From Vezdaea acicularis (lineage: Eukaryota), in NCBI GenBank assembly GCA_026025075.1, contig JAPEUI010000058.1, positions 62,001-109,339 on the forward strand: 47,339 nt of DNA, in the 5' to 3' direction. The translations under genes and the position numbers were made by a program. The notes beneath the pieces were generated by a model. That model saw only the letters and a list, made by a program, of their open reading frames with translations. It made no database searches and was not told the DNA's origin. Below, piece after piece: positions 26,492 to 40,350 of the stretch; positions within the stretch are counted from its first letter, which is position 1, and every line of letters starts with the position of its first letter.

Positions 26492-27478
26492 TTACGAATT
26501 GAACATCCTTGAATATAAGCATTCATGCCTTCCCACCCACAGATCGCCGACAGGCCAACCCTGACCAGCGTCTTCCCAAGGCACATCCGACCACCGTCTG
26601 ACTCCCTCGTTTACAAGATCCCGTGCCTCCTGGCTTGCCAGTAGCCCTTGCGCGTGATATGGCCCCAAAACCCCTAACCTCACAGCAGCAGACAAAACCG
26701 CCCTCACATGTCCAAAAAGATAGCACCAAGCGGCGTCTTCTGCAGCAAAGCCTAGGACAACGGAGACGATACCCCATGTTGCAGCAAAATGTCCGTGGGA
26801 AGGCAATAAATCTGGATGCTCTTCAAGGTCAACTCGCTTGAAGTTCTGTGCGTAGAGCTGAAGGGCGTTGACAGCGCTGGATGCATGTGCACTCTTAGCT
26901 GGGAACGAACCCGAGAAAGAGCGATGATATATTGCTAATAGTGCACGGCCTTGTGAAACGGAACTCCTTCGTGTGACTGGGCAAGGGATGCATGCGTCAA
27001 GCGCATCATCCAACTGGCCTATGAGGTGTGGACTTGCATGTGTGGCCGTCAAAAAGGGTAGATTGGTGGATGCTAGCGAGCGTGTGGATAGATGGAGGAA
27101 GTGGAGTAGACGAGCTATGGGAGTGGAGGAGGCCACTTGGGCGTGGGACTTTGAGGACGGGTGGTGCGCCATAAAAGATTCAAGACCAGAGGAAAAGGCG
27201 AAGGTACCGAGTGGGAGGGCAGAGTCAGTAAGCAGTAAGAGAGGGTGGAGGAGTTGCTTGTGAGATTGGGTCGCTGAACGATATTCAGCATCCTTGACGT
27301 AGGAAAAGGGTATTGTTTATATACGTAAGGAAGTTGGAATATGAGATCCCAGACGAGCATATAGAGCTCTGAGCCGTGACTCCAGAGTTGTGATCTCGGA
27401 CCTTATCAATTCGTCGTTACTTTCCCCTTCTTGCAGTATGAGGAGAGGGTCAGGCTCCATTATGTTGGCCATTGACAT
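26492..27478 (-). CDS. ureF: Urease accessory protein UreF
   Basis: LLLLTDSALPLGTFAFSSGLES, RRSSVSQGRALL and GRHECLYSRMFNS C-terminus; one intron at about 27275-27324. Confidence 0.93.
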
Positions 27479-31914: not shown

Positions 31915-34429
31915 CTACAATATTGCCTCACCAAACCGCTTCCCAATCTCAAGTACTTCCGCATCCGTTCCGCACATCCCTAGCAGAGTGATTCCAAATG
32001 GCAAAGTTGACCCTGAAGCTGTCCCCTTTGGCACTCTCTCTTCTAAATCGCTGATATCATATGTGCCAGATGGGATAGCGACCGCTGTGAGGTCGAGCAC
32101 ATTGCCGAAATGGGTGAACATGCCAAGATGGGAGTTTCGTGAGATGGGATCAGCGAGCATTTCATCAATGGTCCAATGAATTGGCGCCGTTGGTACAACT
32201 AGTACATCGATACCACCATCACGAGGTGTGAAAACTTGTTCTGCTTGACGTGTATAGCTGTCAGAAATAATTAGTCGGAGTTATCTTGGCCGTGATGAAG
32301 AAAAAGTAAAGAGGGCCAACCAACAGCTTTTGAGCCATTAAGTCTCGGTACGCATCAATCGCTGTACTGCTTCTAGCGATTACTCGTTCAAATATCTCAC
32401 GAATGACAGGATGTAGATGTTCTCGGTTGGCTTCGAACCATCCATCTGGCAAGGCAGCTAGACGTTCTGAAACGAAAGTACCGTCGTAAAGGAGATCCCC
32501 TCCCTTTTCGAAAGGGGACCAGTTAACTGGCGTTAATCTGCCGCCCATAGATTGCATTGTCGTTACCGCTTCTTCAAACTTCTTCTGATAAGGCTTAGAG
32601 CATTTCCTTATAGCCTCTAAAGGAGGCACTCCAAAGCGAAAAGACTTCGCCTGTGGTCCTAAAGCATTAACAGCTCGTGGCCGTGATGGAGCAAATTTTG
32701 AGTAGATGTAGTCGTCATCATATCCTTCGACAACCCACCAAACTTTGCGCACGTCATCCACAGTTGGAGCCATAAGCGCGATACAATCTAATGAAGGACA
32801 TGCGGGGGTGAGACCTTGAGCAGATAACGTACCCCGAGTAGGTTTGAAACCTACAACACCATTGAAAAGGGCTGGTACTCTTCCGGAGCCCGCCGTGTCC
32901 GTCGCTATTGAGAACGAAACCAAACCGGCACCAACGCTGACCGCATTACCACTACTGGAACCACCTGAGATGAAATCTTTGTTGAAAATGGAATGCGTTA
33001 TACCATATGGACTGCGGCAGCCCGAGAGACCTGTAGCTAGTTGATCAAGATTTGTCTTGCCGATGAAGAGCGCACCCTCTTGGACGACCTTCTCATGGAC
33101 AACGGCAGATTTTGAGGCGGTAAAGGCAAGCGGTGGACAGGCCGTCGTGGTGGGAATACCTTCCACGTCGATACTGTCTTTAACACTGAAAGGAACTCCG
33201 AAGAGGGGCGGAAGACAATCTCGGTCGTGGTATGTTGACTCTAGAGCTTCTGCAGCCCTCAGTGCCTTCTCTTTGGGTTCTAGATGAATCCAAACAGCTG
33301 GATCAACTTCTCGGTAGGCCTCTATCTTCTTATACAACTCTTCTATAACATTCGAAGGTGAGACACCCCTCTTATAACTGTTTGCTAAGGCTTTGATTGA
33401 TAGATCTCCATCCCAATTAAGTGAAGGGGCTTTGAAGTCTCCGTTCGTACAAGAGTGTCCATTGGCTTTTATAGTACCGTTTGCTCTCGAGCCTCCACCA
33501 AGCTTTGGAAATCCGTTGGTTATCAATTCGGCACTCTGATGCTCATCGGTAGCATGAAAGCCGTTGGATTTGAGAGGGATGTCATCATGACTGCTTGATT
33601 CGACGTTGTCTATACCATTGGCTTTAAGGGGAAGAGCTTCAGCAGCAATTGGGCTGTCAGGGCTTAGACCATTGGACTTGACGGCAAGGTCACCATTGGT
33701 GGTGAGGGAAGTCATGGCATTGTTGGAAAGGTGTTTCATTGCCTTCCCAAAGCTCGAGATCGAAGCCACGAATCCAAAGAGACCACCTGCCCAATTTAAC
33801 ATGTCAAGAGAAGAAGTCTTGAACGCTTTATTGTATCCAGCAGTGGCTTCAACAACGCCGCAACATTCAAAGCCGCGATCGTTTGCTTCGCGAATAGTAG
33901 TTGCAAAGCAACATTCAGTCGTGACGCCAGTTACGACAAGATGGGTTATTGCCCTAGCCTTCAGCTTCTCCATGAGCTTAGTATTCCAAAACGCGCCCTT
34001 ACCTGGCTTGTCGAGTACGACTTCGCCGGGGATTGGTTGGACCTCATCAACAATGTCTTGGCCATATTCTCCACGAACGAGAAGCCGGCCCATTTCCCCC
34101 TTATCGCCTATGGTAAGAGCCTTGTCTGCAGGTCGTGTTGGAAGGTTGCGGAGGAGCTTCGAGGAGGGGCAGTCTGATAGATCTGGGACATGGCCCTCAC
34201 GGGTGTGTACGATGTGCATGTTTAGATCTCGGAACAGCCGGAGTAGCTGCTGAACGTAAGGTATGGTACCTTGGACGTCGGTCATATCTTGCCCTTGCGA
34301 GCTACCAAAGCCATTGGCAAGAAGAAAATCCCGTTGCATATCAATGACAAGCAGCGCAGTATGCTCGAGTGGGAAAGTATATGCGTAAGGCTTTGCCTCC
34401 ACTGTACACGTAGGGATAATGTGGTGCAT
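31915..34429 (-). CDS. Fusion protein: isochorismatase-family cysteine hydrolase (triuret/biuret hydrolase-like) plus allophanate-hydrolase-type amidase
   Basis: N-domain IDMQRDF...HTREGH.PDLSDCP...DKPGKGAF...GVTTECC...REANDRGFEC (Asp-Lys-Cys). C-domain PLFGVPFSVKDSID, GKTNLDQLATG, GGSSSG, TDTAGSGRVPA and NSHLGMFTHFGNVLD (Ser-cisSer-Lys). One intron at about 32260-32325. Confidence 0.93.
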
Positions 34430-34659
34430 TGTGAATATGAGAAGGTCGGGCTTGCAAGCAAGCCGACAGTTGCACAAGAAGGTTTACGTGAACTTCACAG
34501 CTCAGGGCAGGAAGGAAAAAATTCTCAATAACGAATGACCCTCCACGATCCGCAAGAAGCATCTAGAAATATCCTGACAGTATATACCGGGCCCATCTCT
34601 CATCTTGCGACCGCGCATGTTTTCGGTGGCGGCCGTTGGAAGGTGGGATGCGGGGGAGA

Positions 34660-34825
34660 GATAAGAACGAAGTGCGGCCCGCGCTCGCCGCTCGGCGGCG
34701 ACCCTTGCACTGGACCACATCGCACCAGGAACCAGCCTGATAAACGCTAGATTTTGAAAGGCCGAGCGCATCTGGCCCCGACCGCAAGCCGCGGGCCGCA
34801 CGCGTATCTATTCATGTTATCAAAA
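34660..34825. promoter_or_regulatory. Bidirectional promoter elements: inverted GTGCGGCCCGCG pair and GATA sites
   Basis: GTGCGGCCCGCG at 34672-34683 and its exact reverse complement at 34790-34801; GATAAG 34660, GATAAA about 34739, TATCT about 34805 and TTATCA about 34817. Confidence 0.6.
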
Positions 34826-34999
34826 GGTTCGAGAATATCAGCTGCGACAATGATTGAGCGGCGCATATATAGAAGGCGACTGGAAGGCTTTGTCGAAATT
34901 ATCGGGATTCAATCTGAATTTTGGAACCCTACCTTTCCTTGACTGACTGCCCCGTCCAAACCCGTCTCAGCTTTGTCAAAGCAAACAGATTCAGGAATC

Positions 35000-37070
35000 A
35001 TGTCCTTCCTCTCCCCAAATCGCTTAGGGCAGAGGGTAAAGACCAAGGTCAAGAGCCAACTTCATTGGCGAGTCCCTTTCGAGGCAGGCCAGTACGGGAA
35101 TAGCCCAAGATGGTCTAACAAAGGTACCAACACCATTCCTCTACGTCTGTCCTTGGCCTCATTCTAGGGTCTATGCTTGGACGAGTTCGCGGGTCCATCG
35201 TAGTTCTTCACTAATTCCTTTTATAGATCTTGACCCTGTCCCTGTTGAGAAACGGACATGGGGCGCTCTCGAATACTGGTCCTACTGGTGCAGTGACATG
35301 TTGGCTCCGCCGTTGGCGTCGACGGTATCATCAGTCATGGCTCTCGGCTTCACTGCCAGAGAGACCATCCCAATCGTATTCTTTGGCTTCGCCATCTGTA
35401 GTGTAGCGATTACGCTCACTGGCAAGATGGGAGCGAAGTACTCGATCCCCTTTCCAGTTATTGTCCGAAGTGTCTTTGGCATGTATGGCTCGTATTTCGC
35501 CATTGTCATTCGGTCTTTCGTTGCCGCTATGTGGACCGCAATTCTCTGCGTTCAAGCAGGAGGCTTCCTTCAGAACTGCATCGAAGCTATATGGCCTAGC
35601 TTCAAGAATTTCCCAAACCACTTATCTGCCAACGCTGGCATAACTTGTAAGCCTCCCCTCATACTCATTAGTCTTCATACCCAAGGGTTCTAGGGGTTGT
35701 GATGACCAAAAGGAGCGCAAGACGGGGCTAGCTGAACATATGTTGTAAAGTTGTGAATATGTGCATGCTAACTATTTTCTGTCTAGCCGCCGGACTTCTA
35801 TGCTTTTTCCTCTACTGGATGGGTCAAACTGCTCTAGCGTTGATGCCAATCGAAAAGCTCAGAATCTTATTCCTTGTCAAAGCCGCCGTCGTTCCCCCAA
35901 CATTCTTCGCGTTATTCCTATGGGGTGCAATCGTGACACATGGCGGTGGTCCGCTTGTCACGGGTCACTACAAACTGACGAGTACATATATGAATCTCGC
36001 ATACTCTAGTCTGACTGGCCTCAATGCGATCATTGGTCTCTTTTCGAGTCTGGCAGTCAACATGCCAGATTTTGGTCGATTTTCGAAAAACAATCTAGCT
36101 GGAGGTCACCAATTTCTCGCCCTTCCGATCATTGGAACTTTGGGTTCTTTGTGTCCCATCTTTGTTACTTCAGCAAATCAATACCAGTGAGCCTCTAAAC
36201 CCGTTTGCAAGATGACGCAATCTAATTATATAAAGAACTGGAGTGTTTACATGGTACATGCCAGCAATCATCGAGAACTTCCATTCAAGACCAGCGAAAT
36301 TCTTCACGGGGTTCAGCTTCATGCTCGCAACGATTGGAAACCAAATAGCCGCAGGCACGTGTGAGTGAAGATCAGCTGAAAGTGACTTTCAGCGGCTTGG
36401 ACGCTAACGTGGGACAGATCCGTTCAGTAATGATGTCAGCGGAATGGCACCAAAATATATCAACATCTTCCGCGCCACGATTTTCATTAGCGTTTTCTGC
36501 GTTGTCAGTACGCCATGGAATATCATCAAGAATGCAGCTGGGTTCCTTTCATTCCTCTCAGGATACTCGTGCTTTATGGGTCCTTTGGCTGGCACTATGA
36601 TCTGCGACTACTGGATAATCAAGAAACAGAAGCTCGATATTCATGAGCTTTACAAGGATCACGGGATCTACCACTACAATCACGGTTTCAATTGGAGGGC
36701 ATTTGTGGCCTTTGTTATTGGGTTTGGTCCCTCAATGCCTGGATTTGCGAAGAGCATTCATCCAACATTGAATGTTGGCGGGGCTTGGAAGGTATGCACA
36801 TTGATTGAACGCCTCTCATCCCTTTCTAATGGTTTATAGCTATATACCTTCGCATGGCTATTTGGTTTCTTCACTTCTATGCTCGTATACTACGTTATCT
36901 GCACTTATATTGACCGCCCAACTTCTGTCATACTCGACCACGCTGTTCTGCCTCCTCAAAGGGGGGAAATACCCGCGTCTCCACCTTCGCCGTCTTCAGA
37001 GGAGGCGGACGAGCTGGACGTCGAGAAGCAGAACATTCACGCTCGAGCGAAGGAAGTTGGGGACGTATAG
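35000..37070 (+). CDS. NCS1-family (Fur/Dal4-like) nucleobase/allantoin permease
   Basis: RWSNK|DLDPVPVEKRTW, GAKYSIPFPVIVRSVFG, LAVNMPDFGRF, PWNII, GPLAGTMICDYWII and GFNWRAFVAF; five introns. Confidence 0.92.
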
Positions 37071-38150
37071 CTTGCGGAAGCTGTGGCAGCGTCTTGTGGT
37101 GAGAAATCTGGGGGGAAGAGAGCTACACCGTAATGGTACTGTCACATGTTTTCATTCTCACGATACTAAGGCCAAACTTTGCCTAAGATCAACATCCGAT
37201 CTTGGACATGGGATAGCCTGTATGCCTCTTCTATGTGTTATAGGCCATTTCCTCGTATACATTTCAGACGTAGCTGCTTTCAACTTGTGAGGGGTGGGGT
37301 TAGTGCGGGCTCAAAGGGAATGATATCTCAATCGAGATTGGATCACCCCCTTTGAAGTCATCGTGGCGTCTGCCGGCACGTTGGAACGTGCGTCAGACGA
37401 ATCAGGTTACTTGTTCTTATCTCTTCCCCTCAACGAGTGAAATGAGCGGTTCGTTACGTATCTCCAGCTCGTCTTACGGGCAAAAGCTGCCGGAAGTGCC
37501 TCGTGAAAGTTGCTGGCCCGCGTCTCCGCAGATACGCCTGCACGCGGACGACCTCTATGCTGTGCCATCGCGCTGAGAAATCCAATAAGCCTATTCAGCA
37601 ATTTGGGGATGGTGACTTTTTGTATCGTGACATTCTGCTTTGGAAGATGATGGGGGTTAGGGCTTTAGTAGATGAGGAGCGTGGGATACCCACATGGCTA
37701 TAGTGTGGGGAGGCGATCATCTGACTGGTTCGCTACAACGCCACTATCCCTTTAGCATCAAGCCCTCAACCGTGACCACAGCTTTGGATGCACCGTACGA
37801 GGCTGGAGGACCTCCATGGGTGTGCCTATCGTATGGGTAGCCTTTAGTGGTAGACAGCCATGGTTCCTAAAGAGAAGCTTTACGCTGTCTGCAGGGAGAG
37901 CGGCTCCACGCCTGTCCTCTACGACGGATTGGCTTTCTTTTGGCACGGACATATTTCAGGACGACAGGAGGAGACCATAATTGTATGCTGCTCGACTGCC
38001 GGACATGATCCAGGTTTACGTTTTTTAAATTGCCTCGACGTCTTATGAGCCTTCGGGCGAACTCCAGACTCATTGTAGAGGCGATCTTCCCAACTGATCG
38101 GAACTGGGATTATGCTCGTGTGAGCTCCTAAGGCCGGCGAGATCTCCATC

Positions 38151-40350
38151 ATGACATCGAGTATTGGCTCAGGCGGTCAAGAATCAAAAAGGCATAATGT
38201 TCGAGGGCGACCATGTGATCTTTGTAGGGTTCGGAAGGTTAAATGTGTAATAGAGGAGGGCGCAGAGATATGCGCTCGATGCATGTCTCAAACGCTCGAT
38301 TGCACCTTTGCGCAGAGTGCACCTACAAGAAAGAGGTCTGTTGGACGTCTCGACGAGCCCGTTCGGCCGCAGAAGAGACGGTACACCGACAACTTGTATG
38401 CTTCCATAAGACCGTTTCCGCTGACTTCTGTATGTAGATCGTCCTCGTGGCGCATGTACTCTGAGAATGGGACCTATCGCGAAAACCTCCTCTCCTCACA
38501 AACATCACCAACTGACGACCCCTTTAATGGACGTGACCCCAACGTTCCGCCACACTCGCTCCTTAATAAGACGCTGGGCTTAGAGAAGACTCGTCATGCT
38601 CGGTATATCGGCTCTACATCGGCTTTCGAGCAGCGGCTCTTCTCATTATGCCAAGGTCGGAGCGCGCAACAGCGAGGAGCTCTCCGGGCTGTCACTCATG
38701 ACGAGACCTTTCAGATGATACTAGATTCTAGTACGCAACATTATGAGGAAGAAGTTCGGGACCTTGACGCTATCGAGGCAAGCGTTTTTCCGCATGGTCG
38801 AGCTTTAATAAATCTCTACTTTCGGATTATCCATCCAAGTTTCCCAATTTTACACAAGAAGGTCTATCTTGAGAAATATGGACGTACACATCGAGAATTC
38901 TCCCCGCCGCTCTTAGCTGCTGTCTACATATTAGCCCTGCGCTGGTGGGACTATAGTCGAGATCTTGTAAAGCACTCTAAACCTGATGTCGACAAGCTCG
39001 AAGCGCTCGCGGAGAAATCTTTGCACGATGTTATCCATCGTCCTAAGCTCTCGACTGTACAGGCTGGGCTTCTACTCTCACAGCGACATGATGGCGGTAG
39101 CTGGGTGGTCTCAACACAGGTCGTAGCTATGGGCCATGAGCTTGGTCTACATCTTGACTGCTCAGAGTGGAACATACCCTTGTGGGAACGAGGTTTAAGG
39201 AAAAGACTTGCATGGGCGCTGTTCATGCAAGACAAATGGGGTGCTCTTATTCATGCGCGCCCATCTCACATAAGCATTGATGACTGGGCAGTACTTGACG
39301 TTACCAATGAGGATTTCCCTGAGAGCGTTGAGGATGAGGACGACGAAGAAGGTAGTTCTGAGGTTGAGAAAGGAAGAGTGCTCTTCAGTCAGATGATTGC
39401 GTTGACTGAAATTCTTAGTGAAATACTCGGCACGTTTTATACTATAAGGGCACGGAAAGAGATGAATATTGGTGGCAACGAAGAATTGGGAATGATTCTT
39501 GAAAGAGCCAAGCCCGTGCAAATGAAACTAAAAAAGTGGTATATGAGCCTACCGGACGTATTGAAAATCGATAACACGACTGTCCGAAAACTATCTTCAG
39601 TTGGTGAGAGCGCAAGCCCCTTTTGCGGTCTTCTGAATATTGCTTGCTGATTTGTAAGGATATCTTCATCTTGCGTATTTTGCTTCCGAAATCACCCTTC
39701 ATCGTGTCATACTGCGTGCTCTATCAGGTTCCACACCTCCTCCTATACTGGATATTTGTCGATCTGCAGCTGAGACCCGTTTCATGTCTGCTACCAATCT
39801 TATCACGCATCTACGTCCTGAGCACCTGCAATCCTTTTGGTACTTCGCGTCTTCTCTAAACCTTGCCATCGTTGGCGCTTTTGGTGCCCTACTTTGGGCC
39901 ACCTCAAGAAGTGAGGAAGAAAGGAACGTGTATAAAACAAGACTACAAGAGTATCGATGGTGCTTACGGGTCTCGAGCAAGGGAGCAGAGTTCATGGAAA
40001 TTGCTGTGGAGGCTATCAATGACTCGATGGAAGCGCTTGAGTGCGCCGAGAGAGGAATCACTCAGGCGGATCATCTGAATCTTGACCGGGCCTTTGAGCA
40101 CGCTGAGTGGGATGACAACGTGGTAGACTCCCTCGCAGCGATACATGTCGACACGGATCCGAGCGAGGCATTGAGCCCGGATGACGGGAACATAAGAAAA
40201 GAGGACGCAGCAGATGAAACAACGAGTCCCGATGCTTGGTCAACACCAGCAAGTATTGGCCATGCTCTGTACGAAGAGACACTCGAAGGTGGATTCCAGG
40301 ATAGAACAACGCCGGAAGGGCTGTTCGCATTGCTAATGCAGGCAGAATAG
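38151..40350 (+). CDS. Zn2Cys6 transcription factor, Dal81/TamA-like
   Basis: RPCDLCRVRKVKC...CARC......CTF cluster; LYFRIIHPSFPILHK, RPKLSTVQAGLLL and IPLWERGLRKRLAWALFMQDKW resemble Dal81-family middle regions as recalled. Confidence 0.88.

Follow-up and report, generated by a model that had tools for sequence, protein, structure and literature searches.

A conserved fungal three-gene cluster, apparently a variant of the bacterial triuret/biuret–allophanate pathway

Which nitrogen compound would a fungus take up and degrade with a two-domain hydrolase, a permease and a transcription factor encoded side by side? We addressed this question for a locus of Vezdaea acicularis that lies within 47,339 nucleotides of contig JAPEUI010000058.1 (assembly GCA_026025075.1, forward-strand positions 62,001 to 109,339; this whole stretch is referred to as the window and numbered from its first letter). 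A first-pass annotation of the sequence had proposed a self-contained import, degrade and regulate module for an acyclic ureide such as triuret or biuret. We find that the cluster is real, widely conserved and apparently uncharacterised, and that it is apparently a variant of the bacterial triuret/biuret–allophanate pathway. The three genes probably constitute a functional ureide-nitrogen module. Published work is cited by PMC identifier.

Three linked genes and their conservation across fungi

The fusion gene and the NCS1 permease gene lie head-to-head with their ATGs 570 bp apart, and the Zn2Cys6 gene follows, all at the positions given by the first-pass annotation. The features are as follows (aa, amino acids).

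31915..34429, minus strand: cysteine hydrolase (TrtA-derived)/amidase (AtzF-like) fusion, 815 aa; exons 34429-32325 and 32257-31915; from the gene model, Pfam, Protein Data Bank (PDB) matches and splice support
33731..34429, minus strand: isochorismatase-like N-domain; from alignment and a structure model
33412..33770 (approximate bounds), minus strand: Asn-Gly-rich linker of about 119 aa; from comparison with relatives
31915..33411, minus strand: amidase-signature domain; from Pfam, PDB matches and motifs
34430..34999, no strand: divergent intergenic region of 570 bp with four GATAA sites
35000..37071, plus strand: NCS1 (Fur-type) permease, 557 aa; exons 35000-35123, 35227-35646, 35787-36186, 36236-36360, 36418-36791 and 36840-37071
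38151..40350, plus strand: Zn2Cys6 and Fungal_trans factor of the Dal81/TamA-like family, 700 aa; exons 38151-38395, 38438-39603 and 39659-40350; six-Cys cluster intact

The fusion gene runs from an ATG at 34429 to a stop at 31915 and is interrupted by one 67-base intron (32324-32258). Pfam identifies Isochorismatase (E 1e-36) and Amidase (E 8e-69) in one open frame, the former at residues 24-216 of the protein and the latter from residue 361. The permease gene, with its ATG at 35000, has six exons, and PF02133 was found in all three that were scanned; the three-exon regulator gene carries the Pfam domains Zn_clus and Fungal_trans. RNA support comes from four contigs of a single sequencing run at no less than 95% identity; the run contains 8% of the words of the region, and no inference on habitat or expression level is drawn from it. 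Permease introns 36187-36235 and 36792-36839 are each matched by a contig joint with GT..AG ends, and at the splice donor of the fusion gene a contig stops at 32325 with eight loose letters that equal the start of exon 2. A contig from the same run also covers 37393-37656, between permease and regulator, which could represent a long untranslated region, a non-coding transcript or DNA.

Chance does not account for the three-gene arrangement: genomes from several classes have the same genes side by side. With exon 1 of the fusion gene as the query, 2434 proteins were retrieved among 8000 candidates. Both Pfam domains were present in all 120 matches listed, and the named ones belong to Pezizomycotina and to two Boletales. 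Fusions that are more distantly related were found in Pezizomycetes, Aspergillus, Clonostachys, a Pucciniomycotina yeast and a Lipomycetaceae yeast, the last with a degenerate amidase. In Dothideomycetes, Eurotiomycetes and Geoglossomycetes, accessions or locus tags run consecutively through all three genes, with two different gene orders; in Sordariomycetes, Lecanoromycetes and Pezizomycetes they do so for fusion and permease. Classes of fusion carriers are assigned here by genus name.

In Aulographum hederae (KAF1987179-81) the three genes are consecutive and have the fusion–permease–transcription factor order of the window, and Trichoglossum hirsutum has them under consecutive tags (GP486_004937-39). 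Two assemblies of Fonsecaea pedrosoi have three consecutive accessions with the fusion in the middle; in F. monophora the accessions end in 83, 84 and 86. A spacing of two separates fusion from regulator in Piccolia and F. nubica, and permease from regulator in Capronia. Fusion and permease are consecutive in Geopyxis, in all eight Nectriaceae assemblies that have both accessions (Ilyonectria, Dactylonectria, Mariannaea) and, by locus tag, in seven other cases (Geoglossum, Chaenotheca, Caloplaca, Rusavskia, Elasticomyces, Rhinocladiella and a Pleosporales). A metagenome scan gave 80 loci, mostly bacterial amidase, with a handful of fungal ones (L001-L005, L017, L042); in L002 and L003 fusion and permease are again divergent, and the flanks of L002 are unlike those of the window. 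When contigs were paired by length among the matches listed, 13 of the 110 fusions proved to lie on one contig with both partners, 14 with a permease only and 14 with a regulator only; this tally finds a partner for 41 fusions, leaves 69 uninformative, excludes 15 permease rows and, for their short contigs, 11 fusion rows, and counts shared long contigs, which do not equal adjacency. Synteny across Pezizomycotina, which the first-pass annotation had named as a check, is thus confirmed for several classes, and linkage that persists despite changes in gene order and in different classes speaks for a functional unit.

Residues of the enzyme, the permease and their paralogues

The best PDB match of the N-domain is TrtA (220 bits, against 174 for BiuH and 83 for RutB), and identity to TrtA (6XIX) is about 49%. 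The predicted N-domain structure (pLDDT, the predicted local distance difference test score, 95.7) has a template modelling (TM) score of 0.92 to 6XIX; a full-length orthologue was predicted by AlphaFold with a pTM (predicted TM score) of 0.89, and ESM Atlas searches returned only the same families. In a tree of 87 rows, whose bacterial members were a random 22 of 85 TrtA-like and 14 of 60 BiuH-like domains (TrtA-like domains being classed by F35 and E160 only), the 31 fungal N-domains form one clade (100/99) within the TrtA-like group (95/91). They stand apart from the BiuH-like rows and from those with Glu at position 202, the residue that we take to be typical of the guanylurea hydrolase GuuH; the window has Ala there. 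Judged by these comparisons the fungal N-domain is descended from TrtA, and the first-pass call of a cysteine hydrolase is upheld.

Pocket residues were taken as defined in PMC7948467, in TrtA numbering unless stated otherwise, and counted in 116 of the top 120 fungal matches, four having been dropped by the extraction pattern. The end of the pocket at which cleavage occurs is preserved. In the window the triad D30/K141/C174 is intact and F35, F41, E78, K144, T170, E172 and Y199 are kept (own numbering); the TrtA-type second-shell residues F35, E160, Y187 and A134 are all present, with Leu for I205. The fungal domains have the Asp and Lys of the triad in 116/116 and the Cys in 115/116, and they keep F29, E72, K132 (113), T158, F35, E160 and Y187 (114).

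The far end has been rebuilt. All 85 bacterial TrtA-like domains have L39, N41, Q202 and G203; in the fungal domains L39 is replaced by Gln (114/116), N41 by Gly (108/116) and G203 by Gln or Glu (114/116). Window residues Q45, Q47, A214 and G215 stand at these four positions, so that its pocket reads Q39, Q41, A202, G203, of which A202/G203 is common to one sister protein. The Q202/N41 network with which TrtA binds the distal amide is absent from the window N-domain, and none of the BiuH signature residues Y35, Y41, D160, T187, V205 and Q215 is present in the protein. With its cutting end intact and its far end rebuilt, the domain would work like TrtA yet fails membership of both TrtA and BiuH: by its residues, the fusion is neither a canonical TrtA nor a canonical BiuH. 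Gln at 39 or 203 may compensate for the lost Q202.

The second half of the protein is closest to AtzF/allophanate hydrolase in both sequence and fold, with 4CP8 and 4GYR/4GYS as best matches, and its triad K417-S491-S515 is intact; at the level of the family, the allophanate hydrolase call of the first-pass annotation stands. The triad motifs occur in 117-119 of 119 relatives and a Tyr...Arg motif in 116. Window Y648/R656 align with Y299/R307 of 4GYR, and with 4CP8; we take the 4GYR pair to be the substrate-binding Tyr and Arg of allophanate hydrolase. Pfam did not find the C-terminal domain of allophanate hydrolase, PF21986, in the window fusion. In six related proteins (P0410, P0412, P0414, P0417, P0418 and P0421, one of them from Dipodascopsis) the cysteine hydrolase is intact and the amidase catalytic motifs are lost; these motifs are likewise absent from P0406 of Aspergillus californicus.

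The linker between the two domains is about 119 aa long, compared with a median of 33 in 30 relatives measured. It contains eight Asn-Gly units and lacks the (S/T)PPxTP motif that 94 of 119 relatives and type B (see below) possess, which has the appearance of a putative proline-directed phosphosite. An intron within the long linker was considered and rejected: there is a single weak donor-like site, the frame is open and the linker of P0116 is similar (the RNA contigs give no cover there).

Fur4, Dal4 and Fui1 are NCS1/Fur permeases. In the window permease, which is 82-86% identical to a relative over two exons, a distant alignment to Mhp1 (E 1e-9, with two motifs gap-free around transmembrane helix 8) shows W117 kept, an aromatic residue at the W220 position, and the changes Q121 to Leu, N314 to Gln and N318 to Gly. 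Across the 94 subfamily rows, Leu at 121 is found in 78 (13 unread) and Gln/Gly at 314/318 in 77 (14 unread). In Mhp1 these three positions hydrogen-bond the hydantoin ring, and N318 is described as ‘completely conserved’ (PMC4195764). Loss of the ring-binding residues fits an acyclic substrate, and the permease sequence favours a non-ring or otherwise unusual solute. The first-pass call of an NCS1 importer thus holds for the family (PF02133), and its acyclic-ureide part is compatible with the residue changes.

A paralogous cluster was found on two near-identical fungal metagenome contigs, counted here as one observation (L004:2880-12184 and L005:2157-11453). It comprises a Dal81-like factor, an NCS1 permease, a DIOX_N/2-oxoglutarate-Fe (2OG-Fe) oxygenase that clusters at 90% with a Cadophora protein, and a paralogous fusion that we call type B, the window form being type A. 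The L004 permease keeps Q121 and N314/N318; the L004 fusion has Gln at 202, where other type B members have Tyr. This suggests that type B may serve ring uptake and oxidation, and type A direct uptake of an open-chain compound. In a third arrangement, on L042, a fusion tail (15-986) lies tail-to-tail with a more distant NCS1 permease (1402-1911; 31% to the type A permease).

A full-length tree of 27 rows separates type B from type A and places Pezizomycetes at the base of type A, the root being the midpoint and the donor lineage not resolved. The Boletales fusions P0096 and P0120 nest among the ascomycete type A proteins; a single basidiomycete clade is rejected by the approximately unbiased (AU) test (p-AU 2.7e-6), the idea for which came from the overlapping 87-row N-domain tree. 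Horizontal transfer of the type A fusion into Boletales is therefore suggested. A basidiomycete permease, P0318 of Piloderma, also lies among type A proteins.

Of the 155 loci that are non-fungal or unassigned, 4 carry oxygenases related to that of type B, and in two of these the gene lies next to an amidohydrolase within a trtA/biuH operon. Bacterial biuH/trtA operons with such an amidohydrolase and 2OG-Fe oxygenase pair are L147:2696-9320 and L114:34-8888, of which L114 has an atzD-like gene as well; the pair may represent an undescribed oxidative way into the triuret/cyanurate route. L059 and L062 were rejected as bacterial fusions, as no fused open reading frame was present among 149 bacterial domains examined. 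L122, L137 and L139 form a small bacterial BiuH/TrtA-like subgroup with His at 160 and Gln-Gln at 201-202.

Relatives of the window regulator are named OTam or DAL81 by their sources, and as many as three family members per genome are present among the matches listed. The first-pass description of a Dal81-like regulator is accurate at the level of the family; the gene is one of several Dal81/TamA-like paralogues, and orthology to Dal81 or TamA does not follow. In Geoglossum and Trichoglossum the linked factor has a short branch and joins a conserved and widely shared clade to form a group of 19 rows (96). GATAA sites are also present in the shared promoter of L003, with which alone the window promoter shares an 11-base GATA-containing word. 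CGG pairs showed no significant enrichment in the promoter (p 0.08), nor was a common Zn-cluster site found. The cluster adjoins RAI1 on the left and a lipid-droplet hydrolase on the right (Pfam), in a neighbourhood with GET4, UreF, an acyl-CoA dehydrogenase, LTV1, UBC and a proteasome ATPase. The UreF urease accessory gene (26492-27316, minus strand) is 4.6 kb from the cluster, probably by coincidence.

A route through allophanate and its rivals

For the substrate, we regard the odds as even that it is an open-chain carbamoylurea, of the triuret/biuret series with formylbiuret-type relatives included, and that it is degraded through allophanate. On this route the NCS1 permease, its ring-binding Gln/Asn pair replaced, would import the non-ring ureide. 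Cys174 would then attack a terminal carbamoyl amide to give NH3 and an N-carboxy product, a chemistry known from the TrtA/BiuH family and here extended to a presumed substrate. The rebuilt pocket end, in which Gln has shifted from 202 to 39 in the lid (and to 203 in most relatives), might let one domain do the work of both TrtA and BiuH, ending in allophanate. By family knowledge, the fused AtzF-like amidase would split allophanate into NH3 and CO2, and the fusion would hold the labile intermediate near the second active site. Both allophanate and carboxybiuret are unstable compounds whose decay leads to dead ends (PMC6219798), and this instability could be the rationale for fusing the two domains. 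The linked Zn2Cys6 factor, together with a GATA factor under nitrogen limitation, would drive the shared divergent promoter.

Several observations weigh against this route. Q202, present in 85/85 TrtA-like and 60/60 BiuH-like bacterial domains, is Ser in 114 of the 116 top fungal matches and Ala in the window gene, which also lacks Q203. This Gln (Q202/Q215) contacts the amide far from the nucleophile, and Gln215Ala in BiuH lowers kcat/KM from 149742 to 357, about 400-fold (PMC5806882); N41Y and Q202E in TrtA each leave <10% activity (PMC7948467). The NCBIfam biuret amidohydrolase model NF050097 gives 222 bits where the cut-off is 370, and full-length relatives, lacking the C-domain, reach 416-438 bits where TIGR02713 requires 511. 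A scan of 35 window open reading frames revealed no second isochorismatase, hence no BiuH-type partner in the window. The regulator is not covered by the RNA contigs of the one run, and the cluster-linked regulators are not one clade in a poorly resolved tree that places the window gene on a long branch. The GATAA excess is weak, the four sites where 1.0 is expected (6/300 shuffles reach four, p 0.02) being the outcome of one of 24 uncorrected tests. The first-pass proposal is supported in part: the conserved linkage, the enzyme families with their TrtA ancestry, and the permease change fit a module for an acyclic ureide, but since the distal-amide-binding Gln is absent, homology does not identify the substrate as triuret or biuret.

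A less likely alternative keeps the module and changes its substrate to an acyl-urea or to a compound formed by ring opening when purines or pyrimidines are oxidised (oxalurate, formylurea, or a hydantoin- or parabanate-derived acid). The N-domain would remove the nitrogen of the carbamoyl group, after which the amidase would hydrolyse the amide that is left, as in a path from oxalurate via oxamate to oxalate. Such a substrate would suit a pocket that is changed only at the far end, the cleaved-end residues D24, E72, K132, T158 and F29 being kept, and the best side substrate of TrtA is formylurea (PMC7948467). The paralogous cluster couples a ring-type permease with a 2OG-Fe oxygenase, and the title of a cited reference has yeast DAL induction dependent on allophanate or oxalurate. 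However, the amidase is closest to allophanate hydrolase, and its Tyr...Arg motif, in the role presumed above, points to an allophanate intermediate. It is unlikely that the cluster instead serves detoxification or metabolite repair of an endogenous or plant/algal carbamoyl compound, or that its regulator is a general TamA-like coactivator with a purely historical link. Dal81 and TamA are general coactivators whose zinc cluster can be dispensable (PMC10169451), the short-branch grouping of the Geoglossum and Trichoglossum factors points the same way, and a yeast-lineage subfamily has lost the amidase catalytic motifs. Yet an importer is combined here with two hydrolase domains of ammonia-releasing families, GATAA sites occur in both the window and L003 promoters, and the regulator was retained through rearrangement and duplication of the whole cluster.

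It is very improbable that the family is real but its window copy relaxed or decaying, with the family reaction lost. The missing Q202, Q203 and linker motif, the long linker and the long branch of the regulator would be expected of such a copy, but all frames are intact, all catalytic residues are kept and spliced transcripts exist. Moreover, A202/G203 and an Asn-Gly-rich linker recur in a second lineage, that of P0116, with an N-domain identity of about 69%, and the permease is closely similar to its relative in the two exons compared. Returning to the open-chain carbamoylurea, its widest form remains doubtful as a whole: an old, duplicated ascomycete ureide regulon in which the type A enzyme and permease pockets would have changed together to accept an open-chain ureide, the enzyme combining one generalist hydrolase domain with allophanate hydrolase, and in which the type B ring permease and 2OG-Fe oxygenase would feed the same fusion. 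The substrate would be a common, unrecognised soil or lichen nitrogen source from purine oxidation, type A would have moved horizontally into Boletales, and Dal81 and TamA would derive from the cluster regulator. If true, this origin would explain allophanate induction in yeast.

Comparison with known systems

A full-text literature search, with subscription papers and theses outside its scope, found no description of the fusion or the cluster. The available text of PMC7948467 merely notes trtA-like genes in some fungi and leaves open the natural source of triuret. Strope et al. 2011 reported one stand-alone amidase in Dothideomycetes, unlinked to urea carboxylase (PMC3073912); from the shared taxa, rather than by identifier, it is probably the fungal fusion family. 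The searched sections and supplements of that paper mention neither the N-domain nor the cluster. The conserved cluster suggests that the ‘stand-alone amidase’ of the 2011 survey is not a urea-pathway remnant.

Triuret and biuret catabolism has been defined only in bacteria. Occurrence of the cluster in at least six Pezizomycotina classes, among lichen fungi, root associates, plant pathogens and black yeasts, implies a natural and widespread substrate far older than urea fertiliser. The natural changes at Q202, N41 and L39 bear on how TrtA and BiuH specificities interconvert, a question left open in PMC7948467, and the permease, with its N318G change, is a candidate for NCS1 transport of a non-ring solute. 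The parts are of known families; it is the linkage, the matched pocket changes in enzyme and transporter, and the oxygenase paralogue cluster that make the natural substrate a sharp, testable question, for which the three genes offer a compact test system.

The fungal cluster resembles the bacterial trtA-biuH-atzF pathway (Herbaspirillum BH-1 TrtA, 6XIX; PMC7948467) in its triad, in F35/E160/Y187 and in the linkage of allophanate hydrolase and transporter. It differs in having a single cysteine hydrolase domain fused to the amidase, with no BiuH partner in the window, an NCS1 permease where bacterial L147 has an ATP-binding cassette (ABC) transporter, and a Zn2Cys6 regulator. BiuH (6AZO, 6XJM; PMC5806882) shares the fold and triad, and it yields allophanate, on which the fused amidase is expected to act, whereas the fungal domain lies outside the BiuH clade and is without the BiuH signature residues. 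The AtzF and Dur1,2 amidases share the Lys-Ser-Ser triad and give the closest sequence and fold matches; unlike these, the fungal amidase bears a TrtA-derived N-domain and has neither the C-terminal domain of allophanate hydrolase nor a urea carboxylase fusion. With NCS1/Fur carriers such as Mhp1 the permease has PF02133, W117 and the aromatic residue at W220 in common, but the cluster-linked subfamily carries Q121L, N314Q and N318G. Finally, the regulator belongs to the same family as Dal81/TamA by source names and has an intact zinc cluster, the difference being that in the window it is tied to a catabolic cluster.

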